A DNA stretch of 64,000 bases from Sphyrna mokarran. Its lineage: Eukaryota. The notes beneath the pieces are model-generated. The model had not been told where the DNA came from, did no database searches, and was given only the letters and a program-made list of their open reading frames with translations. The stretch spans positions 75,702,001 to 75,766,000 of the forward strand of contig JAGIQG010000010.1 in the NCBI GenBank assembly GCA_024679065.1, in the 5' to 3' direction. A program made the position numbers and the translations under genes. Shown in pieces: positions 3,020-60,666 of the stretch. Position 1 is the stretch's first letter. Each line of letters starts with the position of its first letter.

Positions 3020-4200
3020 TTAAAATAATCTAGGAAGAGATAGCAGAAGCATTTGTTCGAACATGGTGCAATAACAGAAGACTGGTTAACAGTTAATGTT
3101 ATTCCTACATTTAAGAAAGGGGGCAGAATATGCCAATTGAATAATAAACCAGTCATAGAACATAGAACATTACAGCGCAGAACAGGCCCTTCGGCCTTCG
3201 ATGTTGCGCCGACCAATTAGGAACAAGCAGTGACCCTTTAACCTAAACCATTCCCCTTTCATCCATAAACTTATCTACTAACCTCTTAAACGCCACCAAA
3301 CTTGGCGCATCTACAACTGACGCAGGCAAGGCATTCCATACCCTTACCACCCTCTGGGTAAAGAACCTACCTCTGACATCTGTCCTAAAACCACCACCCC
3401 TTAATTTAAAGCTATGTCCCCTCGTGCTAGCTTTCTCCATCCTAGGAAAAAGGCTATCACTGTCCACCTATCTAAACCTCTAATCATCTTATATGTTTCA
3501 ATAAGGTCTCCTCTTAGCCGCCTTCTTTCTAACGAAAACAACCTCAAATCCCTCAGCCTCTCTTCATAAGACCTGCCCTCCATACCAGGCAACATCCTGG
3601 TAAACCTCCTCTGTACCCTCTCCAATGCCTCCACATCTTTCTTATAATGTGGGGACCAGAACTGCACACAATACTCCAAGTGCGGCCGCACTAGAGTTTT
3701 GTACAGTTGCAACATGACGTTGAGGCTCCGAAATTCAATCCCCCTACCAATAAAAGCTAAGACTCCATATGCCTTCTTAACAACCTTATCGACTTGATTG
3801 CCAACTTTCAGGGATCTATGCACATATACACCAAGATCCCTCTGTTCTTCAACACTATTAAGAGTCCTACCATTAGCTCTATACTCTACACATTTGTTAT
3901 TCCTGCCAAAGTGAATTACCCCACACTTTTCCACATTAAACTCCATTTGCCACCTCTCGGCCCAGCTCTGCAACTTGTCCAAGTCTCTCTACAAACTAGA
4001 ACACCCCTCTTCACTATCTACCACTCCTCCGACTTTGGTGTCATCCGCAAATTTACTAATAGTCAGCTTAACATCAACTGAGAAATGGGAATGCTACTAA
4101 AGGATAATGTAGAACGTAAATATTTATAAAATAACAACAAATAGTGTGGATTTCAAGAAGGAAAATCTTGTTTGACCAATTTCATTGAATTTTTTTCAGG
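3020..4200 (+). mobile_element. Old CR1 LINE fragment (host of the young CR1 at 3156-4060)
   Basis: EDWLTVNVIPTFKKG before the insert and KSCLTNFIEFF after it; the host sequence is continuous across the duplicated AGTCA. Confidence 0.7.
3156..4060 (-). mobile_element. Young 5'-truncated CR1 LINE (ORF2 C-terminus, 3' UTR, (TTCTATG)n tail)
   Basis: ORFs 3401..3982 and 3243..3467 ([32 protein letters not shown]) with one frameshift; tail tagaacatagaaca; AGTCA repeated at 3151-3155 and 4061-4065. Confidence 0.92.
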
Positions 4201-16400: not shown

Positions 16401-16789
16401 TATGGAGCATGTTGAGTATTGTTGGAATTCTCTGCAAATGGAGAGAATTCTGACTTGTGCCTTATAGATGGTGGACAGGCTATGGGGAGTCAGGAGGCAA
16501 GTTACTTACCTCAGAATACCCAGCCTATAACCTACTGTTCAAGCCACAGTGTTTATATAGTTGATCTAGTTTAGTTTCTGTTGAATGGTCACCCAAGCAT
16601 GTTAATAGAAACCTAGGAAATAGGAGCAGCACCTTGAGCCTGCTTTACTATTTCAACTAAATCATGGTTAATCATCTAACTCAATTCCTTTTCCTGCACA
16701 ATCCCCATTTCCCACCGCTCCTCAAGGCTGTTCTAAGAATTTTATGATTCAATCAGATAATCTCACATTCTTCTAAATCAATGGTCTCC

Positions 16790-18560
16790 AGCAGTCTTAA
16801 AAATTTCAACTTTACTAAAACGCCCAAAAACACATGCTGTGCATAATCTGTGCTTAGTATGACATCTGAAAGTGCTGTGAAATCTGGGTCACAGTTTGAG
16901 ATGGCCAATCTTATACAGCCCATCAGATGAGTATCTGTGAGATATGTGCGATACTTGACCTTAGTGATTTTCATCTGGGAAAGAGCCATCTCACAGAGGT
17001 GTATGAAACCAAAGTAAGCATTCAACTTGAATGCACAGGATGTCAGAAGAGAATACTTCTCTGTTCCCAAAAGTCTTTGTCCCTTAACGTAGTTTTCAGC
17101 TCTATGTCATTTTGCATGATGATAATTTCCATGTTAAGTTCACTGCTTTATTCAACACCTGTTGAAATTTTGCTATCAGTTCTCCCATGTCCACTTAAGG
17201 AAAAGGATTTGAAACAAATGTAATGATTTGTTCCATCTTGTGTACCTTCTGAAATCGTCCACTGAATTCCTTTCCCAATTTGTTTGGATAAACCCTATTT
17301 GACCAATTGTTTGGTTTTATCCAGATTTGGGAAGTGTTTAGTAATTTTGGCACAGTTTCCACTTGAATGCATTCACCACACTGATCATGTGTGACAATTT
17401 CTATCCCAGTTTGTGATTTAGTTTGTTCAATTTTGCACTTAGGTCCATAAAAAATGCCAAGTCTAGCAACCACGTATTAGCTGACAGCTCGCTGTACACC
17501 TCACTTCTTTATTTAAGAAAGGTGACAATTTCAGGGAGCAGATCTAAAAATCTCTGGGGGACTTATCTTCAACTTAACTACCTCATATCTCCATGAAGGA
17601 TTAATTCATCATGTAAGTGGCATCAAGCTCGAGTAACGATTTGAACAAGTGATATTACAGAGTTCTGGCACAAATTGAATTGACGATTTTGACAACTGTC
17701 ATTACATGAGAAAAGTCATAACCCTGCTCACTTATGGGTGGACAACACAATGGTAACTGACAGAGGAGGATTCAGGACCATTTTTGCAAAATGCAATAAA
17801 GCCTGCACTGGCACCCAGAATTAATGGTGCACCATTGGTTGTGATTGAAACCAGTTTCTTGATTGGAATGTTTTTCTTAGTCGCATATCTTTAAATTTAT
17901 TGTAGACATCATTACCTCTAGTCCTCTCTTTTGAGTGGTAAAGAAAGTGAGAAAGTCTTTGGTTGTTGTTGAGTCTTTGAATGCCATGTGAACGAAACCA
18001 ATCAGCTGAGAGGTATCCATCATATCTATTGATCCAAACCATTTCCTGAGACAGGTTCTGGGACAACAATTCCACATTTCTGGCTACTGGTAAAGCAGTA
18101 AGCTCTTGATGGCTGTCATAATTTCATCTTTGTTTTTTTGCTAGCCTTAACTTTAGCCACAGTTTTAGAAAAGAGTGACTGAGGAGCTTTCAAATTTCCA
18201 TTAACTCCCCAATTTACTTCATTCGAATCACACTGTTTAAAGGGGAATTTTCTTGAAATTTTGCATTCATTGTCTTGTGATGCCATTCTAAATTACCTCT
18301 TCTCAAGACTACACTGATGACAAATGAGACAAACGATCTTGTCTTTGAAATTTATAAAAAGAAATTCACTTCCCAACTCTTGGTGGAAATGGTAGGATTA
18401 TGCCCACTTGGACGTCCCTTACTTATCATTTCACTGTAGAAAATTAGAAACTGAAAAGCCCAGCTTATTACAAGTTTTGGTGCGAGCAAGAATCTCATTT
18501 GTGCATTTTTGATGCAGTTCAGCAGGCAATGAGTTGATTCATCTGTGCTGACATTTAGCT
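16790..18560 (-). mobile_element. Fossil hAT (Charlie / GTF2IRD2-EPM2AIP1-like) transposase
   Basis: Reverse-strand remnants: SWEVNFF..KDKIVCLICHQ (BED-like zinc finger, ~18320-18380), the VVKIVNSICAR region (~17665-17700) and C-terminal KYRTYLTDTHLMGCIRLAISNCDPDF (ORF 16753..17070); many stops and frameshifts. Confidence 0.8.
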
Positions 18561-22365: not shown

Positions 22366-23037
22366 AGAACATAGAACATAGAACATAGAACATTACAGCA
22401 CAGAACAGGCCCTTCGGCCTTCGATGTTGCGCCGACCAATATAAAAAGCAATGCCCCTCCAAACTAAACCATTCCCTTCTCTTCCATATACTTATCAACT
22501 AACCTCTTAAACGCCACCAAACTTGGCGCATCTACAACTGCTGCAGGCAGGGCATTCCACTCCCGAACCACCCTTTGGGTAAAGAACCTACCTCTGATAT
22601 CCGTCCTATAACTATCACCCCTTAATTTAAAGCTGTGTCCCCTCGTGCTAGCTTTTTCCATCCTAGGAAAAAGGCTATCACTGTCCACCCTATCTAAACC
22701 TCTAATCATCTTATATGTTTCGATTAGGTCCCCTCTTAGCCGCCTCCTTTCTAACGAAAACAACCTCAAATCCCTCAGCCTCTCTTCATAAGACCTGCCC
22801 TCCATACCAGGCAACATCCTGGTAAACCTCCTCTGTACCCTCTCCAATGCCTCCACATCTTTCTTATAATGTGGGGACCAGAACTGCACACAATACTCCA
22901 AGTGCGGCCGCACTAGAGTTTTGTACAGTTGCAACATGACGTTGCGGCTCCGAAATTCAATCCCTCTACCAATAAAAGCCAAGACTCCATATGCCTTCTT
23001 AACAACCTTCTCAACCTGACTGCCTACTTTCAGGGAT
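22366..23037 (-). mobile_element. Young 5'-truncated CR1 LINE with an uninterrupted ORF2 C-terminus
   Basis: ORF 22464..23057 is open to the natural stop; (tagaaca)4 tail; highly similar to the copies at 3156 and 59116. Confidence 0.93.
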
Positions 23038-24084
23038 AAAAACATGTTTCTGTACAAACATCAGTAGTGCAGTTTCAATCAGAAAGCTTTCAGACCAAAT
23101 CTGGCAATAGGTATCTCCTACTCTGTTTGAGTGTTGCATAGAGTCCATCATGAAGGATATGGGCATAAGAGGAGTGATAATCCCAGGCAATGAAAATGAG
23201 CAGGTCAAAGCCTCCCTGTACATGGACGATGTCACCATTTCCTGCTTGGATCCAACACAAGCTCTTGAACGTCTGTGGCAGTTTGAACTGGCTTTGGGAA
23301 ATGTGACAAGAGTGAGGCTATGTTCTTTGGGAACTGATTGATTGATCCTTTGATCCTCCACCATCAGGTCAGAGTACCTGAAATTGCTGGGAGTGTAGCT
23401 CAGAGTGGTTGGCGTGTGCTACAAAAACTGGAAGGGGCATATTGCTAAGGCAAAACAGCACATGGGAGAACACACTCTCTTCAGTGTGGACAAAAAAACC
23501 TGGTCATCAGGTGCGAAGTGCTCTCTGGATTGTTTCTTACATCCTGATCCAGTGCCGCAACAGTCATCTGAGCCATCTTCAAATTCATGTGGGGATCCAA
23601 GATGGATCAAGTCTGAAGAGATACCATGCACAGATCTTTGGATAAGGGAGGGAAAAAGGTTATCCAACATTGCCTTCAGTCTGATGGCCAACTTTATGTG
23701 TGGTCGCATCAGGTACATTCTTGGTAGGTAAACACCAAGTGCACTACATACTGAGGTTTTACACGTTCTCGGTGTTGTGAAGGATGAGTCTGGCCACATT
23801 GCTGCAGAATGTTCCAAGTAGTTAGATCATGCCTATCACCTATCACCTATCCGTCATTCATTTTTGACCACAAGGCCATCAATCAGTGGTCTTCACATAA
23901 TGTCCTCAAAGCCTTAAGGAAAAAGGAGATGGTGGATCCTGTCAGACAGTTCCAAATGACTTTCAAAGTCATTTGGCAGAAGATCTCATCACATGGACTT
24001 TCAAACAAGTACCAAGACTAAGTTTGGCTGTTGGCGAGAAGGGCACTCCGCATTAGATCCTTCATGCACATCTAATGCGCATAA

Positions 24085-28311: not shown

Positions 28312-31300
28312 AGTACATAAGAGCATAAGTACATAAGGAGTAGGAGTAGACCATTCAGCCCCTAGACCCTGCTCCGCCATTCAATAAGATCATGGCTGAC
28401 CTGATAGTGGGTTCAGTTCCACTTACCCACTGCTCCACATAACCCTTAATTCCTTATTGGTTAAAAATCTATCTGTGACTTAAACACATTTAACGAGGTA
28501 GACTCTACTGCTTCATTGGGCAGAAAATTCCAAAGATTCACTACCCTCTGGGGGAAGAAATTCCTCCTCAACTCTGTTCCAAATTAACTCCTCCTTATTT
28601 TAAGGCTGTGCCCTCTAGTTCTTGTTTCCTTTCTGAGTGGACATAATCTCTCTGCTTCTACCCTGTCTAGCTCCTTCATTATCTTATATGTCTCTATAAA
28701 CAACCCCCTAGCCTTTTAAACATCAGTGAATACAGGCCCAGTCTACTCGATCTCTCCTCATAAGCTAACCCCCTCATCTTTCTCTATACCCCCTCCAAAG
28801 CTAATATATCCTTTCTTAAATAAGGGGACCAAAACTGTGCACAATACTCTAAGTGCGGCCTCACCAGTATCTTGTACAGTTGCAGCATGACCTCTCTGCT
28901 TTTATACTCCATCTCTCTTGCAATAAAGGCCAACATTCTATTTGCCTTCTTGATTACCTACTGCACCTGCAAACTGAGTTTTTGTGATTCATGCACAAGG
29001 ACCCCCAGGTCCCTCTGTAATTTTTCACCATTTAAATAATAGCCCATTTTACTATTATTCCTTCCAAAGTGGATAACCTCACACTTACCAACATTATACT
29101 CCATCTGCCAGATCCTTGCCCATCCAGTTAGCCTATCCAAATCTCTCTGCAGAGTTTATGTCCTCCACGCAATTTGCTTTCCTATTCATCTTTGTGTCAT
29201 CAGCAAACTTTGTTACCCTACATTTGGTCCCCTCCTCCAGATCATCTCTGTATATGGTCAACAGTTGAGCCCCCGCAGCGATTCCTGCAGCACATCACTA
29301 GTCACTGATTGCCAAACGGAAAAGCATCCATTTACTCTGACTCTCTGCTTTCTGTTAGATAGCCAATTCTCAATCCACGCTAAAACTTTACCCCCAACTC
29401 CGTGAACCCTTATCTTATGCAGCAACCTTTTGTGAGGCACTTTGTTGAATGCCTTCTGGAAATCTAAATACACCACATCTATCAGTTCCCCTCTGTCAAC
29501 CACATTTGTTATATCCTCATAAAATTCCAGTAAATTAGTCAAACATGACTTTCCCTTTATGAATCCATGCTGGATCTGCTTGATTGAACCATTCTTTTCT
29601 AGGTGTCCTCATAATTCTTCCTTAATGATAGATTCTAGCATTTTTCCAACTACGGATGTTAAGATAATCAGTTTGTAGTTACCTGCCTTTTGTCAACCTC
29701 CTTTTTTAAACAGCGGTGTTATATTATGTTTTCTAATCAACTGGCACCTCCCCAGAGTCCAGTGAATTTTGATAAATTACAACTAATGCATTTGCTATTA
29801 CTGCTGCCGTTTCTTTTAGTACCCTGGGATGCATTCCATCCAAACCAGGGGACTTGTCTATCTTTAGTGTAATTAGCCTACCCAGCACTATCTCTTTAGT
29901 AATAGTGATCGTTTTAAGGTCCTCACCCCTTACAGTCCCATGACTGTCAATTATTGGTATGCTATTTGTGTTCTCCACTGTGAAGACTGACACAAAAAAC
30001 TTGTTTAAAGCCTCGGCCATTTCCTCGTTTCCCATTATTAAACCACCCTTCTCATCTTCTAAGGGTCCAACATTTACTTTAACCACTCTTTTCCGTTTTA
30101 TATATTTGTAAAAACTTTTACTAACAGTTTTTATATTTTGTGCTAGTTTATCTTCATAGTCTATCTTTGCTTTCTTTATTGCTTTCTTAGTAGTTCTTTA
30201 TTGTTTTTTAAAGCTTTCTCAATCTTGTAGTTCCCCACTAATTTTGGCCACACTGTATGCATTGGTTTTTAATTTGATACTCTCCTTTATTATCCATGAA
30301 TGGTTATCCATTTTCTTACATTAATTCTTTTTCACTGGAATATATTTTTGCTGAGTACTGAGAAAAATCTCTTAAAAATCCTCCACTGTTCCTCACCTGT
30401 CCCACCAATTAGTCTGTGTTCCCAGTCTACATTAGCTATCTCTGCCCTCATCCTATTGTAATCCCCCTTGTTCATGCAGAGGACACTGGTTTGGGGCCCT
30501 ACTTTCTCATCCTCCATCTGTATTAGAAATTCAACCATATTGTGATCACTCATTCCAAGAGGATCCTCACAAGGAGATCTTTAATTTTATCTGACTCATT
30601 ACACAAGACCAGATCCAAGATAGCTTGCTCCCTCATAGTTTCCTCGAACAATATGTTACAGAACCTATCTCGACAGCATTCTAAGAACTCTTCCCCAAGT
30701 CCACTGCATCCAACTTGAGTTGATCAACTAATATGGAGGTTAACATTCCCCGTGATTATTGCTGTTCCATTTTTACATGCATCTGTTATTTGTTTGTTTA
30801 TAGCCCACCCCACCTTGAAATTATTATTGGGGGACCTATACACTACGCCCACATTGACTTTTTCCCCTTACTATTCCTTACTTCCACCCACATTTATTCC
30901 ACATTTTGTTCTTTAGAGCCTCTATCTTCTCTGACTACTGCCCTGACGTTATCCTCAATTAACAGAGCTACCCCGCCCCCTTTTCCTTCCTGTCTATCGT
31001 TCCGAATTGTCTGATACCTCTGGATATTCAGTTCCCAGTCCTGGTCACCCTGCAACCACATTTCTGTAATGGCCACTAGATCATACCCGTTTGTACTGAT
31101 TTGTGCCGTCAACTCATTCACTTTGTTTCGAATGCTATGTGCATTCAGGTAAAGGTCTTCATGTTAATCTTTCTTACCTGGACCCGATTTGTTAGTGCAT
31201 TCCTTTGTTTGCATGCTCTGTCCCTTCCCGTCATAGACTGGTTATTCTTCCCCAGATTGTCCCCCTGCACTGCGTTGACCACCTCCTTCTCACGCTTGTC

Positions 31301-32999: not shown

Positions 33000-33299
33000 C
33001 TTGTGTGCTTGTCCTGGAATGTTGAGTTTAAAGAGAAATCAGTAAATGCCTCTTGAGCCTCACATCTGTGTCTGTTACTCTACTGTCCATTCAAATGGAT
33101 ATTTCAAACCTTTTGTTACAATTACCTTACCTTCATTTGCTATTTTACTAACCTGGCTGTACAGCTGCCAATATCACCTCTCCCTTGATTTGTTGATCAG
33201 CCCCAAGAACTAGAAACAACTCTGGTCTGTGCCTCAAATGTTTCTGTTATGATGACCACAAGGGAATCATCAATAGATTTCTCTATGGACCTCGTAGTG

Positions 33300-35690
33300 G
33301 GTGGGGGGGAACTAAGCATTTTCGAAGTTTGGACATGAGCCATGCATATCTCCAACTTGAATTAGACAAGTTGTCCCAAAAGTGTGTGACAATTAATACA
33401 CACGACTACACTTGCTTATCATTTGGGGTCTCATCTGCATGTGCCATTTTTCAACTGGTCATGGAAAACATACTCCAAGGGTTACTTCAGGTAGCAGTGT
33501 TTCTAGATGATACTTTGGTTGCAGGAGCTTCTGAATGAGAATGCCTAATGAATCTGGAAGAGATCTTCTTATAGTGATTTTTGGAAGTCTGAGTATGCCT
33601 GAAAAGGAAAAAATGCATCTTCCAAGCATGATCCATGACCCATTTGGGATATCAGGTGAATGGCATGGACATTCATCCTGTGGAGGACAAAGTGAGGGCC
33701 ATCAAGGAGCTACCACCTCCAAGCAATCCCATGGAATTGAAATTCTTCCTGGGGTTAGTGAATTATTATGGGAAATTTACTCTGAGCTTAGCTTCTTACT
33801 ACTGGCTTCCATGCATACCCTACTACAGAAACATCAAAGGTGGGCCTGGGAGGAATCACAGCTGAAAGCTTTCAACACCGCTAAACAGACATATTTGATC
33901 TCAGTTATTGGTCCATTTTGAACGCAAAAAGAACTTTATCTTGATATGTGATGCCTTCCCTTACAGGATTGGGGTGCGGGTGGTACTGACATATTGCTGG
34001 AGACATGTAACAGAGAAGCCACTTGCATATACATCTAGGACCCTTTTGGACACTAAGCAGAGGTACTCCTAGACTGAGAAAGAAGGGTTGGCAAACAAAG
34101 AAGAAGAAGTTGTCTGGTGTTAAAATAGTCCATCAACATGCCTATAGTAGATGTTCATCATAATAACTGATCATAAGCCATTATTGGCACTTTTTAAAGA
34201 AGACAACACAATACCTCCATTGCCTCCATCCAGATACAGCATTGGACCCTGTTACTGGCAGCTTACGAATGTCTCCTTGAGCACTGTCTCAGGATCTGGA
34301 TCGCTAATACTGAGGCGCTGAGTCATCTATCATTTACCATTGGCCTGGCTTTGCTACCAGCTGTGGAAGAGTCATGAAGACCCTCAATTTTGTCTGCGCC
34401 TTGCTGGTGTTTGCAAGACAAATCAAAGCCTCGATACAAAAGGCCCTAGTCTTATCTAAATTAAAACATATAATATTACATGAGGGATTGAGAGGACAGC
34501 CCTCACATTAAATAAAACAATACATGATAAAAAAACAAGCTCAACGTTGATGATGGCGTCATCCTCTGGGGTTTCTGGGATCCCTTGCCCAGGGCAACGT
34601 CCAATATTTATAGAATTATACCATAATCACCCTGGGATTTGAAAGATGAAAATGCTAGCCAGCAGCTACATATGGTGGCCCAGGCTTGATGCAAACTTTA
34701 TCAACTTGGTTATACAGTGTGAGTTGTGCCAAGAGGATCAAACACACCCCTCTTTTGCTCCCTACATCCATGGGAATGGCCTGGTAGCACTGGATGAGAG
34801 TAAATATGAACTCTGCTGGGCTTTTTATTGGTTCTGTGCTCTTAATTATGGTTGACAAGCATGGATGGAGATATATTGCATGTGGTGGAACCACTTCCCA
34901 TACTACCACTGATAAACTACAACAATTTTTGCATGCATAGGATACCTGAAATCCTGATCTCTGATGATACACTGCCTTTACAAGCACCAAATTTCAAATT
35001 TTCCAATGGAATCAAACACGTTAGCACAGCTCCTTATCCTGTCATCAAATAAGTTGATGAATCAATGGTGCAGATTTTTAAGCTGTGCATGAAGAGCAAG
35101 CCACAAGGGTCCATAGAGTCCAAACTGGTGCAACTTTTATTTGAATACAGGACTATCCCTCACACAACGACAAGAATTGCCCCAGCAGAATTGTTAATAG
35201 AATGAAAGCTTCAGACAATATTAAAACTATTGTTACCAAACCTGGCAGGGAGGGTGGAGTCTCAAAAAGAAAACCAGAAGAAGAATTATGATAATGCAAG
35301 GAATGTTCACAATCAGTAACCAGTCCTTGTGAGAAACTTCAGGGATGGTGTAGTTGACTCCTGGGATCATGACAAAAAACAGGGCCTGTGTCTTATAATG
35401 CCCAAGTGCAGGGAAAAAGTGGCAGGAAGTCTCTGGACCACCTCAAGAGTAAGGAACCTGTGCCAGTGCATGCCTCATTACCAACCATGGAGATGATCAT
35501 TGCCAGTGTTAAGCCATGACTAGAAGTCAATCCTATGCCCGCCTCTTCGGTTGATGGAGATGTGGATTCTGAGCTAGACGCAGAAGAGACCAGCATCCCA
35601 AGTGAACGAAGACCTCAGGAAGAACCAACATCTGTGGCTCCCATGTTCATTTTGGAAGCAAATGTCTGCAATTCACTTTACACCCTCTGA
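33300..35690 (+). mobile_element. Degraded Gypsy LTR-retrotransposon pol (RT, RNase H, integrase); no LTR recognised
   Basis: LDMSHAYLQ...FGVSSACAIFQ...FLDDTLV; FLGLVNYYGKF; CDAFPYRIG; TDHKPLL; HPGI..MKMLASSYIWWP...CELCQ zinc-binding region; YRTIPHTTT. Confidence 0.88.
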
Positions 35691-41415: not shown

Positions 41416-42937
41416 AACATGTATTGGACAACACCATCAGATTTCTGAGTAACAAGGTGGCCCAGGCAAGTACAGTATAATATTTAAAGCTACCAATTAT
41501 TTATGCAATATATTGAATAAATAGGATACTCATTAAAACTGATGGGATTTCTTTATATCTGCTGTACCCCTAAATTCAAGGAACCATATTTTATTCCTTG
41601 ATAACAAGCAGAATTTTGAACTTATTAGCATCTAGGTTTGATTAACAATAATCATGTGGGACCATAAACATTCTTAACCTGACAAATATGAATAAAAATC
41701 AGTCATAGCAGAATATATTTATAAATATAGTGAATATATATCTATTTCAGTTTCTTCACTACCTTCATCTCTTGGAATTAATAGTAGCAAAATAAATTTC
41801 AGAGCATGGCATTCTAATGTAATAAATTGCTTTGCTTATTATCAAATAAAATCATTGATCATGTATCAGATCAATGAGATAAAGCTTTTTGTACTTAAAA
41901 ATTTCTTGAAATCTATTCACTTAACAAATCTGACCAATGAGGTTAAACTTGTCCGACAGTGTTAACAAAATTATGCAATACACAAAACTGATCAGTGTTT
42001 TTCTTTAGAAAGAATTAGCTGTTTTTTGAAAAATGAATCAGAGATAAAATGGCTAAATTAGTCATTAAATTAAAATTATGTTGTCAAAATTATATTCATG
42101 ATATTGATAGCATCACATTCCCCAAAAGGTATTCGATGCTGCATGTAGATATATATCTGCCCACTAGAACCACAGAACCCTACAGTGTAGGAGGCGGCCA
42201 TTCAGTCTATTGAGTTTGCACCAACTCTCCAAACAGCATCTTACCCAGGCTCCTGGGCCAGAATTTTTTTTAAACCTTCCATCAAAGTAGACATAAGTCT
42301 ATTTGAATGTGTAAATAAGTTGCTTAAAGTCTGCTCCTAGTCTGCGCTGCAACTTAGGTTAGTTGTGAAGCGACAAGCTGATTAAGGAAGCACTTATGAT
42401 GATGCTACTTGCAGTTTGGAAATTTATAACTTCACCCTCCAATGTCACATCACCCTGATCCTAGCCTCCACTTCCCAACATCATTCCCTGCACCCCTCCC
42501 AATCTTCTGGAGGATGGTGAACTTTCTACCCGACCTCACCCTGCAGTCCATGCATCACTCCAAATGACTCGCAAGGCCTGTGATCTTCCTATCCAACCCC
42601 TACTGAGCCTTGATTATCAACTCCAAGACTCACTCATTCCTCCTCTGGGTCCACATGATCCAATCCAATCAAATTATTAAATTACAAATTAGAGCACAAA
42701 GCTGTGCAAGACTCTTATAGCAGCATTGTCTACATTAAGGAGGGGTTATGAGATCCAAAATCAGGGGCTCCTCAGACCTTCAGATCTTAGCACAAGCAGT
42801 TAAGGTGTCCAAAAACAGTTGTGCCTGATTTTCTCTGCCCTGATACTTCGTAATTACATCAATGTGACTTTATCAATATTGATACATGGTAATCTATGTA
42901 CTTGGAATTTTTAAAAACTTTTTCTCATATTCCTTAC

Positions 42938-43338
42938 CTGTGTTTAAGATGTGCTTCCAAATCACAGCGTTGCATCACTTCTTGACAATCATTTTCAAAA
43001 GGACACAACACCAACAGTTTATCTAGAAGTTTGTGAACAAGGATGCTGGACCTTTTGCACAGTTTAAAATGAAGCCTTTTGCGGTCCAATGGGCAGAAAT
43101 TCTTCTCTCGCAAAAAATTACGGAGGCACTTGTGGCAAAATGTATGTCCACAGGGAGTGTCAAGTGGCTGTAATAGAGGCTGGAGACATATGTGGCAGAC
43201 AAGGTCATCATCCATTTCATGTTGGTAATTGTACAGATGGTTCTCCCGTATCCAGTGCTGCTGACCACACTCAAAGCATAATGGGTTTAAAGGGGGCTCC
43301 TGTTCCTCTGGATTAACGTCACCATTAGTAGTACTCAT
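42938..43338 (-). CDS. LNX2: LNX2 first coding exon (Zn-RING-Zn domain of the E3 ubiquitin ligase LNX2)
   Basis: [76 protein letters not shown]...[33 protein letters not shown]...[13 protein letters not shown] is nearly identical to vertebrate LNX2; start context accATGa; donor CAG|gtaagg at 42937-42932; 401 nt, phase 2. Confidence 0.96.
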
Positions 43339-43455
43339 GGTAACTCACTTTGGCACAGTTGCTGTCAGTCAGTTACTAATTTACGGTTACCAGTCCATGG
43401 TCAGATATTCAAATGTAATTTATCCTGGTATCAGCAATCTTCGAGTCTCATTGTT
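43339..43455 (-). other. LNX2: 5' UTR portion of the LNX2 first coding exon, containing two uORFs
   Basis: Strong acceptor ttttaatttttttgcag| with AG at 43457-43456; upstream ATGs at 43451 and 43398. Confidence 0.75.
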
Positions 43456-49710: not shown

Positions 49711-52469
49711 GAATGCAAAATGCACAAAAGAATTAAACAAATTTCTAAAAAAGAATCACAGCTTTTAAAATTACATTTTTAATTAGAATCAAAGAAACAT
49801 GCAGCATTGGGGACCACTATTCGCTCATTCTTCTAGAAATATCTGCCAGATGTTCCTCTACGCAATTCCGTGCCTTAGGTCAGGGATATAGACTGAAATT
49901 GGACACTTCATCTACACTTCTAATATTGAGGACAACATTAATAATGTGGATTAAATTGTTAATTCCAATAGTTGTATGTTCAGGATGAAAGGTCAAGATT
50001 TATGGCCTTGCTCGTCCTGAAACCGTAAAATCCCACCTGAGATCAACAGACCTTTTCATGGTCCACGTCCAATTGTGGGACGATAAAATTCTGCCTAATG
50101 AGTCTGAAGCTAGCCAGTAATTTAAAATAGTTTTGTTTCCAAGACTGCAAAATAAAGTCACAGACTTTCTCAATTCCTCTCAGACACCCAGATTGAACGG
50201 TTTATCTACTCAGGCAATGCATCTATAATTCTTCCCCAATTGTGGACATTCTGTACTTACTTACCAACTTAAAGCATGTATTCTATTACAGAACAATTTC
50301 AACATTAATATAAATCATGAATGTTGTGATTCTCATTCTGTCCCATGGAGCTTCATCACCAGATTTTATAGTTGCAACTGAACAGAAAATTACCAATTGT
50401 AAGTTGTAAACAACAAAGTGCAGATGTCAGAATTAACTTGAATAATGCCTAGGACTGCCTCCAAGAGTTCAACATGGAGACCGCCAGCAACTCTCAGCCC
50501 CAAAATATCACAGCAGATTCAGCATCCTGAAGGAGGACCATCCTCCAACCTCAGAATAATAGAGATCGTGCGCAAAAAAGGGCAGGATTGGATAGTAAAT
50601 ATTACTGGATATAAGGGACTTGATTTTCTTGCTGAAACTGGGAAACAGATGCTTGTACTATTCTGGGTCCTTCATCCTCCCCCAGTTGTTGGGAAGACAG
50701 TCACAGGCTCGATTTCCAAAGGGGCAGCGTTAATTGGCCGGAGGATGGGTTGGGCAACAAATTAGCGAACAAAGGTAGGACTGAGCGAGTGCAGACCTCT
50801 TAAGCAAACCATTACTGAGCTTCCATTTTACTCATTAAATTGCAGCAGTAATTACAGAACAGGAAAGACAGAGGGCTGGAACATGAGGCTAGGCTGGTCC
50901 TCACTTCACCGATGCCAATTGGGAGGTCCTATTGAGGTAGTGAAGGAGAAGAGGGAGGTTCCCTTTCTAGAGGCAGGAGAAGGCCACCATCTGAAATCAA
51001 GGTTGCATGGATTGAGATCACTGAGAATATCAGCAGGTAAAGTTGACAAGGAGAAACCAATTCAGGGCCAGAAAAGTTTTAATGACCTTATTCACACTAG
51101 TCAGACCTCATGACAGTAGTTTAGCTATTCAACCTTAGGAGTTGGAGGGCATTTGTTGCTCCTGAACATGGGAGATAAGTGGATCCGGAATACTTACTGA
51201 TCCCTCAGTCAGGCTGCGTCCCAGTGTTGCTAAGGACTTGCAGCTTTGATATATGCAGCTTTCTAGCTCAGATACAGTCATGTTCAGCTGGGCACAGATA
51301 AAAGGCTTCAAAAAAGAAAGCCCTACCTGAGGAATGGGTGCTCAACAGGAGTTGAGCACCCACAAGTCAGACTCCCCAAGGTACTGCACTGTCATGCGTG
51401 GAGAATGAAGGAGTCTGTTCAAATGTGAAACCCTGGCTGAGTGCTGGACACGGATCAAAATCAGATTCTGTTTGTTGTGAAACAACAGAGTTATGATTAC
51501 AGAAGAGCAGCATCCCACAAGCCACTTACTAGTGGGAAAAAATACACAGGAATGAATTTGAAAAGTTACAAAGAGGTGCAAAAACTATAAATTAGTGATC
51601 ATGGAGACTTTAATTACCCTAATATAGACTGAGATAGTAGCACATGGAGAGGAGAAAGAGTTTTAAAAAAATCAGTCATAATGACACTGGTGGAGGCCAT
51701 TCAGCCCATCAAATCCTTGCCAGTGTGTTCAGAAAAATTTTCTTAATCATGATGTTTCTAGCCCAAAGAGAAAGGAAGCATTTCTGGATCTGCTTGTGGC
51801 AAATTAGGTCAGTCAAGCAGATCAAAGGGTGATCTTACCTTCTCATCCCACCAGACAGTTGGGAGGGCAAGCCGGTAAGATCACAAGAGAGCTGGGGAAA
51901 AAAAGAGAAAATCGGGTTCTTGCCCTATATCTCACTTCTTGCTATCTTACCAGCATTGGATACCAGCCTCATACTCAAAAATCAGCGATGGAGGCCAGTA
52001 ATAGCTGGGGAAAGGCAGCAACAGGTCTCTCTGAGATCTGTGCATATGCAAAGGTGCCCTCTGTTGCAAACCATCACCTCTTGACAAGCTTAGGCCCTGT
52101 ACCCTTTCCTTGCTGGCAGGAAACAGATTTTGCTTCACTTTTTCCTCAGTGTAGAAAATTGGATTCTTAACTCAACACTCCTCCCCCCCAAAAAAAGAGC
52201 AATTCTCTCCAGTTTTCACGTTTGTTTGACACTTAGAATTTTTTGGTAAGATCCAAGACAAGAATGATGTTGAATAAATTATTCAAATGGGGATTTAAAT
52301 GTAATTAATGAGTCCAGGATTGAAGTCTCCAGGCCCACTAAAATCTGCGCTCTGCAATGCACAGAGTGGGAGATTCACTTTGAAAGTGCAGCTGAAAATA
52401 AACCAGTGAGATTTACTTCAGTTTGTACACAAATTCAACATTTAGGAAAGAATTTATTTGGGAGAATCC

Positions 52470-53530
52470 ATGCTATACATTACAGCAGGTGACAGTGCAG
52501 AGCAAACAGCCAGCTGTGAATGAAGGAAAGCTATCAGATGAAGTATAAAATAAACACTGCAAAAGCAAAATGAAATAAGGTCGGAAAATGTTCATATCAG
52601 GACTTAATTGGAAGATATCCTAGGAAACATGAGACACTAAAGTCAATGAATCAAATTGTTCAAGATGTGAACAAACATTTTTCAGATGTCCCAGAAGCAC
52701 AAGAAAGAGACTACAGAACTGAAAAAAATGGTTGAACATTTTGGAAGAAAACTTAAGATAAAACATTACATTTCCAAGGTGACATGTAAAGAGATGAAAA
52801 AAATCAAGAACCTAAAACAAGAGAAAGTAGAAGTTGTCACAAGAAAGCACGAGAAACCTCAAAAACAAATAGCAAAAGCACAATTACAAAATGCAAGCTT
52901 GAATGATAGCACAGAGGAATAATACTCTGCCAAGGAAAGTCACATCAGCTTAGTGAATCATTTTCACATATGAAAGATTCATATGACCAAATAAGAACAG
53001 ATGTGGAACACTTGAAATAGGACTCGAAATGCTTAAATGATGAACTTGATCAACAAAAATGGATCTTTAACTAAAATTTGATGAACTTCAAGCAATTGAG
53101 TAAAATGCCTAGAACAGGAGAAGGAATTGTTGATGAATCATAACAGTTATTTGAATGCAGAATAAACAACAACTTTGGTTCAATCAGAACAACATGAAGG
53201 ACAAGATGTGCAGTGTACAGACTTTAAAACCAGAAAAGGGAATGCTACAGAATAGATTGAAAATTTAACAAATGAAATTAAAGAGTCTTAGGAGCAGTCA
53301 GCAACCATGGAGGAAAGATTCCAAAAATAACTGATTGCTCAGACGAACTTGTTAAAAAGTTTCACAGATAACTCAAAGATAAACAACTTATTCAAGTTGT
53401 TGCTTTGAATGCAAAGATTCATAATAACTTCTGAATCAACTAAAAATGGTTCAAACCAATGAATGAAAAATAAAGAGGATAAAAAGATACTCAGATGACA
53501 GAACAAGTTTCAAATCAACAGGATCTGCCA
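52470..53530 (+). pseudogene. TPR: Decayed intronless copy of nucleoprotein TPR, N-terminal coiled coil
   Basis: Reading through stops and frameshifts from ATG 52470: TLQQV...[86 protein letters not shown]. Collinear with human TPR as recalled: VLQQV..[90 protein letters not shown]. Confidence 0.82.
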
Positions 53531-54039
53531 TTCTTCCGATATTTGTGTGAATGAGACATGGAAGTGTTATAGGTCTTCAGACTGGCTGAACTTTTGAACT
53601 CTGAGACTTGAAAAGGTTGATGGGCTCGAAACAGCAATAACAATGTAATGTATAACAAATGGCAATGTAATATAGAATTACTTGAAATAGATTGGACAAA
53701 GACTTGCTGGTGGGGAAGGGGTGAGGAAAAGAAGGTGTAGTATCTTGCAGGAGTGGGGAGGTGGAGGAGGGGAGGTGTAGTATAAGAGTAGCAAAAAAGA
53801 TTAACAAAGAACAAAGAAAATTACAGCACAGGAAGAGGCTCTTTAGCCCTCCAAGACTGCACCGACAGTGGGACCAGGTAATGTACCACTCAGAGTGATG
53901 AGAAAGAACACATGACCTGCCTCTTGGAGACAGATCCTAACTTGAACCCTTTACTGTACTTGTTAGCTACAAGAATGATGTACATACACGTCATCTATTT
54001 AAGATGACAAATATTTCATTCAGACCTACTATCACCATA

Positions 54040-54712
54040 TAACATTACCAAGTTCAAAAGAGGGTCAAAGGATATACCTAGCAATTGCAGATCAGTCAAT
54101 TTAAACTCAGTTGTGGAAAGACTTTAAAAATAATCCAGGACAAGATTGTCATTTGAAAAAGTGTGGATTAATTAAGTAAAATCAGTGGGTTTATTAAAGG
54201 CAAATTATATTTAATTAACTTGATTGAGTTTTGGTTACGTAACCACAAGAGTAATGTGATTGATGAAGTGCACATTGATATCCACAAAGGTATTTGGAAG
54301 TACTACATAATAAGCATAATAATCTGAGGCCAATTTTCCATCACCATCACCCTTTATTTGAAACATGCCAAAGTGCTGCTCAGCGGCTGCAGTGTACAGG
54401 AAAGCATCAAAGTCTTTCAACTGCCAGTCTGAAGGGAGCCAACTGCTTTTAAGCCCCTCTGTATGTCCTATCCTATTGGATAAGCCTCTACTCATATAAC
54501 AGGAGAAATTGTATTCTACATGGGGAAATCTATTGACTATCATCATGACATCAAGTTTGCAAACAAAGTTGAAGTTCATGGAATAAAAAGGACAGTGGCA
54601 ACATAAATACATTGTTGAATAAATGTTAGAGTACAGAGAAGAAGTGAACTATTGCTTTTTGATGAGAGTAAGGTATGTAGCACCATTCCCTAGGATTGTA
54701 ATTGGGACCACT
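54040..54712 (+). mobile_element. Old CR1 RT fragments, interrupted
   Basis: gcaattgcagatcagtcaatttaaactcag, KGKLYLINLIEF-like segment and later HGIKGTVA-like segment. Confidence 0.55.
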
Positions 54713-59115: not shown

Positions 59116-60362
59116 ACATAGAACATAACAGCATAGAACAGGCCCTTCGGCCTTTGATGTTGCGCCGACCAATTAAGAAAAAGCAATGACCCTCTAACCT
59201 AAACCATTCCCTTTTTGTCCATAAACTTATCTACTAACCTCTTAAATGCCACCAAACTTGGCACATCTACAACTGCAGCAGGCAGGGCATTCCATACCCT
59301 TACCACCCTCTGGGTAAAGAACCTACCTCTGACATCCGTCCTATAACTACCACCCCTTAATTTAAAGCTATGTCCCCTCGTGCTAGCTTCTCCATCCTAG
59401 GAAAAAGGCTATCACTGTCCACCCTATCTAAACCTCTAATCATCTTATATGTTTCAATAAGGTCTCCTCTTAGCCGCCTTTTCTAACGAAAACAACCTCA
59501 AATCCCTCAGCCTCTCTTCATAAGACCTGCCCTCCATACCAGGCAACATCCTGGTAAACCTCCTTTGTACCCTCTCCAATGCCTCCACATCTTTCTTATA
59601 ATGCGGGGACCAGAACTGTACACAATACTCCAAGTGCGGCCGCACTAGAGTTTTGTACAGTTGCAACATGACGTTGCAGCTCCGAAATTCAATCCCCCTA
59701 CCAATAAAAGCTAAGACTCCGTATACCTTCTTAACAACCTTATCGACTTGATTGCCAACTTTCAGGGATCTATGCACATATACACCAAGATCCCTCTGTT
59801 CTTCAACACTATTAAGAGTCCTACATTAGCCCTGTACGCTACACATTCGTTATTCCTGCCAAAGTGAATTACCTCACACTTTTCCACATTAAACTCCATT
59901 TGCCACCTCTCGGCCCAGCTCTGCAACTTGTCCAAGTCTCTCTGCAAACTATAACACCCCTCTTCACTGTCTACCACTCCACCGACTTTAGTGTCATCTG
60001 CAAATTTACTAATCCATCCTTCAATACCCTCATCCAGATCATTTATAAAAATTACAAACAGCAGGGGCCCCAAAACAGATCCCTGAGGTACACCACTTGT
60101 AACCGAACTCCATGATGAATAATTTCCATCAACTACTACCCTCTGTCTTCTATCAGATAGCCAATTCCTAATCCAATTAGCTAAATCACCCTCAATCCCA
60201 TACATCTGCATTTTCTGCAGAAGCCTTCCATGGGGTACCTTATCGAACGCCTTACTAAAGTCCATATATACCACATCAACTGCCTTACCCCCATCCACCT
60301 CTTTGGTCACTTTTTCAAAAAACTCAATAAGATTATTAAGGCATGACCTACCCTTCACAAAA
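59116..60362 (-). mobile_element. Young 5'-truncated CR1 LINE (RT core to 3' tail)
   Basis: ORFs 59762..60379 ([34 protein letters not shown]) and 59454..59777; taaaatagg on both flanks (59107-59115, 60365-60373). Confidence 0.93.
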
Positions 60363-60666
60363 CATAAAATAGGGAACATTTTCTAGCGTAGATGACACCA
60401 ACTAAAATTATGCTCTAATTGTGCTCAAATTTAAATTCACATTTAAAACAAGCAAGGTAATTTATATGTGAGTTGCCTCTGATACTCTTAATATGACTAT
60501 GCTACACAAAGAGTTATCTCTTGCTATTTTAAAAATCATAGCTTAAGGATGCTAAAGAAATGCAAGTACTATTGGGGTGAAACAACCTCAATATGGGCAC
60601 CATTAATTTTCAATCTTGGGCTGATGCCCCAACTAGATTAAAAGTAAGGCCAAAAGGCAAGACTCA

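Follow-up and report, generated by a model that had tools for sequence, protein, structure and literature searches.

A dead LTR-retrotransposon copy with a spliced TPR fragment upstream of the LNX2 coding start in Sphyrna mokarran, and the candidate Gag-TPR fusion of its shark family

Results

The LNX2 locus

We analysed a 64,000-nt stretch of Sphyrna mokarran DNA (contig JAGIQG010000010.1, positions 75,702,001 to 75,766,000, forward strand), referred to here as the window. On its minus strand lies the first coding exon of LNX2; upstream of this exon and on the opposite strand are the remains of an LTR retrotransposon with a piece of the nucleoporin gene TPR. The LTR elements with TPR sequence fall into two types, A and B, and the window copy is of type B. 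The features are:

42,934-43,455 (-): LNX2 first coding exon with the RING domain; acceptor at 43,455, ATG at 43,338; lower bound set where the open frame ends
52,482-52,775 (+): type-B gag-side linker, which holds TLQQV, KLSDEV and GKHETLK; 5' truncation point of the element
52,776-52,913 (+): stretch of coiled-coil-like character, perhaps TPR aa 52-97 in strongly diverged form
52,914-53,405 (+): spliced TPR fragment, from the end of exon 3 into part of exon 9 (host cDNA 292 to about 925, aa 98 to about 308)
53,408-53,708 (+): 3' internal tail, 62-76% identical to the tails of copies such as L073, L076 and L071
53,709-53,775 (+): polypurine tract plus first LTR bases, twice in tandem (from sequence and alignment to L073 and L076)
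53,776-54,044 (+): 3' LTR with TG..CA ends, 62-74% identical to family LTRs over 53,925-54,046

The RING exon matches the LNX2 structure 5DIN with E 3.6e-72, compared with 1.5e-48 for LNX1 (5H7R), and the first-pass annotation correctly put the TPR-like segment on the opposite strand, upstream of the LNX2 coding start. Its position within LNX2 intron 1 is plausible from a splice acceptor 117 nt before the ATG and from a single CpG-island window, found by scanning 114 kb, which is located about 27 kb beyond the window end and contains CCAAT-like boxes and a candidate donor in the LNX2 direction; the element is probably intronic and antisense in LNX2 (first intron). The CpG-island promoter itself (L203:6,700-7,350, corresponding to G000:C2:75,792,700-75,793,350) looks bidirectional. 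A candidate LNX2 first exon is found on its minus strand and a short coding exon on its plus strand; the latter presumably resembles exon 1 of POLR1D, and the Pfam RNA_pol_L_2 matches of the genome are on other contigs.

The window also holds other remnants of mobile DNA. A decayed LTR-retrotransposon reverse transcriptase is present in LNX2 at 33,197-33,921 (+; RVT_1, E 6e-8), and an open frame without a Pfam match at 16,753-17,106 (-) resembles, as we assume, the end of a hAT transposase. LINE reverse-transcriptase fragments, all four of which we take to be of the CR1-like class, lie at 3,401-3,988, 22,464-23,060, 29,258-30,197 and 59,454-60,382.

The window copy

The window copy spans 52,482-54,044 (+) and represents a 5'-truncated LTR element with purine tract and 3' LTR; the 5' LTR and most of the upstream gag-like frame are missing. 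Other copies match the start of the linker from 52,446-52,495 onward, a few of them already from 52,446, and in these copies the linker is a stop-poor frame carried on from the gag-like region. The 46 codons before 52,914 align with TPR aa 52-97 at a gapless protein score with p 0.006 (500 shuffles) and are in one frame with TPR aa 98 onward; at the DNA level, no TPR signal was detected in this stretch. Many stops and frameshifts break the TPR fragment. About 53 nt of exon 6 are lost, spanning a 33-nt deletion that is common in the family, and the match to Pfam Nucleoprot-TPR (E 2.7e-4, 21.4 bits) is below the cut-off of 27. The start of the LTR is duplicated (53,736 and 53,776), and the 3' LTR is split near 53,795-53,890 by an insert, the end of a common interspersed repeat, that matches many unrelated loci in both orientations.

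Directly 5' of the element are two further repeats, at 51,829-52,249 and 52,347-52,467; one is 61% like a stretch of L083, the other is reverse-oriented and like L087 and L113.

The window segment is a dead copy of an LTR-retrotransposon family, and nothing evident is done by this copy now. A domesticated host retrogene was also considered and was rejected in view of the stops and frameshifts of the window copy and a longest non-host open frame of 149 aa.

Origin from spliced TPR mRNA

The host TPR gene was located with Pfam PF25481 on contig C1548. Its first 12 exons, all with GT-AG introns, extend over 26 kb and form a single open frame of 465 codons, with later exons in order downstream. 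Spliced exons 1-12 match the window in tblastn with E 5e-11. The alignment of 52,781-53,420 to the host cDNA scores 290.6, against a mean of 37.8 and a maximum of 58.3 in 200 codon shuffles, and the true exon order is above all 200 shuffled exon orders (maximum 255.7). No intron sequence is present between the exon matches in the window, in agreement with the absence of introns reported initially. Continuity across the TPR exon junctions, proposed as a check, holds in part: the spliced form is clearly favoured in the window only at exons 7/8 (25 vs 12 and 18), junctions 4/5 and 6/7 are weakly spliced-like, and 3/4, 5/6 and 8/9 have no preference. Across 55 copies, the spliced junction scores at least 20 in 28 cases, the two unspliced forms in 0 and 1. 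Judged by these alignments, the window segment derives from spliced TPR mRNA.

A protein search with the sister copy L017 among 1.84 billion proteins returned nine matches, eight of which were looked up: four are TPR or TPR-like by name, one is a catshark copy and three have no informative name. The best match is the 153-aa catshark protein GCB67842.1. A homologue search with the TPR piece of the sister copy, under a length limit of 2000 aa that leaves out full TPR, found nothing. With four matches named TPR or TPR-like, and host TPR itself at E 5e-11 to the window, TPR ranks above generic coiled-coil proteins as the best match, as had been expected.

The peptide motifs on which the TPR assignment was originally based are placed exactly or a few bases off (TLQQV 52,477, KLSDEV 52,528, KHETLK 52,625, VEHLK 53,003, KFDELQA 53,074, CLEQEKEL 53,106, IENLTNE 53,256), and they are distributed across three different frames. 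From 52,914 on they belong to TPR. TLQQV, KLSDEV and KHETLK lie on the gag side of the element and have no TPR likeness in DNA (z 0.4, -1.0 and 0.2 against TPR exons 1-3 in 16 type-B copies). The proposed match to roughly TPR residues 1-370 shrinks to aa 98 to about 308, and a retrocopy beginning at the TPR ATG has to be discarded, the 'ATG' at 52,470 having no alignment to the TPR start. At the other end, TPR exon 13 or later is absent from the 14 copies tested.

A dispersed LTR family

Contrary to its first description as non-TE sequence, the segment belongs to a dispersed LTR family. Searches with the window region gave 44 DNA matches from 40 scored of 437 candidates (the long ones with 63-71% identity), and PF25481 gave 86 matches from 150 scored of 280, one of which is a host exon; all family counts are lower bounds, so that at least 85 TPR fragments exist besides the host gene. 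In 14 control genomes, no PF25481-type match was found. The LTR matched in 40/40 scored of 422 candidates, mostly near 70% identity and none of them young, and the gag-like frame in 143/150 scored of 464. The locus comparison took in 90 loci, and sequence on both sides of TPR is common to the copies.

The processed retrocopy of the first-pass annotation is therefore correct in its spliced TPR origin, and misses that the segment is one copy of a multi-copy LTR family. High copy number had been named as a finding against the TPR assignment; the repeat is indeed high-copy, and its cargo is genuinely TPR. A single LINE-made processed pseudogene that starts from the ATG would explain intronless TPR exons in order. 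We rejected it as extremely improbable, because only the 5' part of the mRNA is present and the TPR 5' end is absent from it, no poly(A) tail was seen, the flanking linker, tail, purine tract and 3' LTR are common to many loci, and the exon-6 deletion region is common to other copies.

The full type-B copies L073 and L077 have direct terminal repeats of about 275 bp with TG..CA ends; the LTR pairs agree at 201/270 and 192/266 positions. Right behind the 5' LTR of L073, L077 and L225 lies the primer-site-like TGGTGGCAGCG, which we take to match the 3' end of tRNA-Leu, and a purine tract precedes the 3' LTR in type-B copies. The 5-bp flanks agree at 4/5 positions in L073 and in the solo LTR L096, and are unreadable in most of 20 LTR loci. 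Taken for its structure alone, an LTR family carrying a TPR piece is very probable. The six element copies scanned contain no pol. None of 50 integrase loci and 29 primer-site loci qualified as an autonomous partner with type-B LTRs, and no intact copy was encountered among the copies examined. The tree of 41 copies, based on host-anchored columns, consists of star-like subfamilies A0, A1, B0 and B1 with terminal branches of 0.15-0.3.

Two side observations concern single loci. L167 (G000:C993:62.50 Mb) has RNase H and integrase frames, which in our estimation look retroviral rather than Gypsy. In the type-B loci L117, L119, L131 and L135, the gag-like part is joined to the tail with no TPR match between; these are probably internal deletions.

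The type-B upstream frame

The gag-like frame of type B stayed negative in Pfam, PDB sequence, two homologue and two fold searches, a degenerate gag pattern had no match, and the type-B leader has no credible Pfam name. Its AlphaFold model is all-helical (pLDDT 65.8, pTM 0.33), and a Foldseek comparison with PDB and BFVD gave the frame no name. An Sm/LSM identity (best E 0.006) conflicts with the all-helical model and was dismissed. A profile of the frame finds its six best matches among 26 other primer-site loci at E 0.0014-2.2, and all six are on the sense strand, at 210-660 nt downstream of the primer site. We presume a likeness to Gag, and the frame may, weakly, be classified as such.

In type B, stops are rare in one frame along the gag-like region and linker and in one frame along TPR, with 3/21 windows not clean. 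How the linker frame connects to the TPR frame is ambiguous at a single position rich in indels, although individual natural copies can be read through parts of this link.

Type A and the shared cassette

Type-A copies possess no type-B parts, and their TPR sequence begins at its own start. Over 907 nt, their upstream DNA shares 59% identity (E 1e-33) with an integrase-bearing Gypsy locus of the same genome, with tblastx matches in the zinc knuckle and the protease; SCAN (E 0.02) and zf-CCHC (E 0.056) were found below the Pfam cut-offs. Gmr1-like elements are described with the order SCAN-PR-IN-RT (bioRxiv 2025.03.03.638093). L169 has zinc knuckle, protease motif and integrase in Gmr1 order. 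In type A, TPR stands directly behind the protease, where integrase and reverse transcriptase are expected, and an integrase before a reverse transcriptase is not found. As far as homology can tell, the type-A carrier is a deleted derivative of a Gmr1-like Gypsy element and not a complete member.

The type-A cassette consists of the last ~15 nt of the TPR 5' UTR plus exons 1-12, in frame behind the protease. The junction is covered in 14/19 type-A loci; from the protease end to TPR codon 6 the distance is exactly 45 nt in seven (one being the reference) and a multiple of three in nine. The TPR ATG itself is altered in most A1 copies, as expected if translation began upstream. A1 copies have long terminal repeats of another kind than type B.

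In A1 (L192:5000-5790, L190, L084, L086, L193), the TPR sequence breaks off where exon 6 ends, and another common coiled-coil-like segment follows, perhaps a second captured gene, for which Pfam gave no credible name. Part of the A1 locus L086 (2,508-4,730) contains near-identical local duplications and an inverted TPR piece with 93-99.7% identity, either a recent rearrangement or an assembly artefact.

Three deletions mark the cassette, of 186 nt (A0 and B), 96 nt (some A0 and B) and 33 nt (mainly B1), and all of them keep the frame; they are exact in 6/9, 3/5 and 3/4 of the measurable deleted copies. Other gaps of at least 4 nt are a multiple of three in 18/63. The type-A deletion in exons 1-3 measures roughly 200-225 nt, its size being approximate. 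Two of these deletions are found in the catshark protein GCB67842.1, as gaps of exactly 32 and 62 residues at the corresponding sites, and the protein runs on into the type-B tail. The deletions shared by A and B, together with the catshark gaps, point to one capture before both carriers, and the gaps at the same sites indicate that the family is older than the split from the catshark lineage. The LTR-pair distances are 0.31 and 0.35. At 0.6-1.1e-9 per site per year, a rate based on the whale shark-zebra shark dS in PMC13100897, these would correspond to a rough age of 140-285 My, likely more than 100 My.

The 'TPR-like' protein XP_033011504.1 of Lacerta agilis has TPR aa 136-332 behind 183 unrelated residues and no match to the shark element; it could be an independently formed TPR chimera or an artefact of the gene model.

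Selection on the TPR piece

Because neutral decay dominates pairwise comparisons, we used a shared-change test: patterns found in two copies of one subfamily versus host and outside copies were counted, minus the discordant pattern. A first coarse grouping gave a shared dN/dS of 0.58 (interval 0.30-1.16), which is not significant. With the subfamily groups redrawn from the tree after this coarse grouping, shared dN/dS is 0.46 (0.25-0.91) in B1 and 0.56 (0.35-0.93) pooled; A1 alone gives 0.65 (0.32-1.51), not significant, and B0 0.79 with a wide interval. Shifted frames yield 1.7-2.2. Third positions account for 22.6/43.8 shared changes, and 28.5 shared amino-acid changes are observed where about 51 are expected from the synonymous rate. 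In neutral simulations with the same tree and coverage, 0/60 runs were as low as 0.56, and the median of shared stops was 3.1 compared to 0.19 observed; simulated stems at 0.4 reproduce the data. Changes private to copies, on the other hand, have a dN/dS of 0.96 (0.83-1.12). Since shared changes are constrained and private changes neutral, the active ancestors likely translated a Gag-TPR coiled-coil fusion. We consider such a translated and selected fusion in this LTR family likely.

It might be argued that TPR was passive cargo, captured by chance and spread for reasons unrelated to the TPR protein, with at most an open frame kept against RNA decay. Pairwise dN/dS among type-B copies (0.93, 0.78-1.07) would fit, and chance capture with secondary retroposition is documented (PMC5131818). 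Three in-frame deletions would arise by chance in about 1 of 40 cases at the 18/63 background, which is unlikely but possible. However, the pairwise comparisons are dominated by neutral decay after insertion, amino-acid changes and not only stops are depleted among the shared changes, the protease-TPR junction is in frame, and the cassette was retained through a change of carrier. Passive cargo is thus an improbable account.

Discussion

A model for capture, transfer and role

It is established that LTR elements pick up mRNAs when reverse transcription switches template, and that the resulting chimera can be copied again (PMC5131818). In the model that we propose, a reverse transcriptase would have switched template onto a co-packaged TPR mRNA, leading to capture behind the protease of a Gmr1-like element. 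The cassette lost 186, 96 and 33 nt and is present as well in the type-B carrier, which has different LTRs, the TGGTGGCAGCG primer site and another gag-like frame; a second template switch would have brought it there. The spread was presumably non-autonomous, with reverse transcriptase and integrase borrowed in trans from complete elements; we infer this mobilisation in trans from the failure to see pol.

The least certain step is the role of the protein. The cited parts of earlier work indicate that a TPR fragment of residues 1-304 fails to bind the pore and is capable of filament formation, the pore domain being 435-649 (PMC2175216), that the leucine zipper of TPR starts from aa 78 (bioRxiv 10.64898/2026.10.08.757499), and that HIV-1 Gag still assembles with a zipper in place of NC (PMC6042153). 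The captured part would accordingly end at or before the pore-association domain and cover the self-associating region, and a self-dimerising TPR coiled coil without its pore-anchoring domain could serve as an oligomerisation module on Gag. In type B, the TPR piece is found where the rear of Gag would be expected. The zipper-for-NC idea applies to type B alone, since type A still has its zinc knuckle. By analogy with these systems, we put forward an oligomerisation role tentatively.

Alternatively, the TPR piece may have acted as a decoy that pairs with host TPR, weakens the retention of unspliced RNA or TPR-dependent silencing and aids RNA export. The purifying selection on shared changes is compatible with this, and the piece is without pore domain, as a dominant-negative fragment would be. 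In the work available, TPR knockdown raises export of unspliced Gag/Pol-CTE RNA, an activity that needs pore localisation (PMC3258255), TPR homodimerises through its rod (PMC2876962), and mouse piRNA silencing uses TPR (PMC7618654). But a benefit in trans to all elements is a weaker account of selection on a non-autonomous element, and the SPOCD1 site (aa 775-877; PMC7618654) is outside the captured piece; we regard the decoy as unlikely. Oligomerisation therefore receives the most weight, the decoy less and passive cargo the least.

A farther-reaching reading, to which we assign a probability of roughly 40%, is that early shark retrotransposons recruited the coiled coil of a nucleoporin as a functional part of their Gag polyprotein. 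Selection would have accompanied its in-frame trimming, and the module would then have passed from a Gmr1-like to an unrelated Gypsy element, there replacing the RNA-binding rear of Gag or acting as a decoy against host TPR.

Comparison with known captures

The LTR-mediated retroposition treated by Tan et al. (2016; PMC5131818) resembles the present case: spliced host mRNA is taken up in sense orientation, often in frame, and re-copied with the same switch points. The cases set out there are young and have few copies (one to five for maize Bs1), whereas at least 85 fragments are found here, with a likely age above 100 My, serial in-frame deletions, a carrier change and a selection signal. Also close are the crocodilian CrocERV29 with KIT-ligand and CrocERV31 with nectin3, where, in the portion of PMC4299795 used, captured host mRNA is likewise ancient, under purifying selection and present in several species, and an in-frame deletion is common to some copies, as here. 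In these ERVs the host gene forms an extra ORF or replaces env (PMC4299795). Here the carriers are of Gypsy type and the cargo is a nucleoporin fused to the Gag polyprotein; it replaces pol in type A and the rear of gag plus pol in type B. With Gmr1-like Gypsy elements, type A has a homologous SCAN-like, zinc-knuckle and protease region in common, its integrase and reverse transcriptase being replaced by TPR. The traffic described for this group went the opposite way, the host taking SCAN from the element (bioRxiv 2025.03.03.638093, in the text cited). Fusions of the TPR-MET type, as presented in PMC2175216, also use the N-terminal TPR coiled coil without the pore domain. They are somatic and have the kinase downstream, while here TPR is downstream of Gag in a germline mobile element.

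A search of the full-text literature, with Repbase, Dfam, subscription journals and supplements outside its scope, found no description of a TPR-carrying LTR family, which may be catalogued under a repeat name in repeat databases. Novel features are a nucleoporin as cargo, joined to Gag-protease where pol would stand, the number and age of the copies, and the transfer of the cassette from one Gypsy lineage to another.

A consequence for genome annotation is that short 'TPR-like' gene models in sharks, GCB67842.1 among them, can in fact be copies of a transposon. In animals, captures of host genes by LTR elements are known mostly as young, low-copy accidents; the cargo here appears to have been used. 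As TPR restrains the export of unspliced retroviral-type RNA and aids transposon silencing in the mouse, the family may be the fossil of an element that exploited a nuclear-pore protein.
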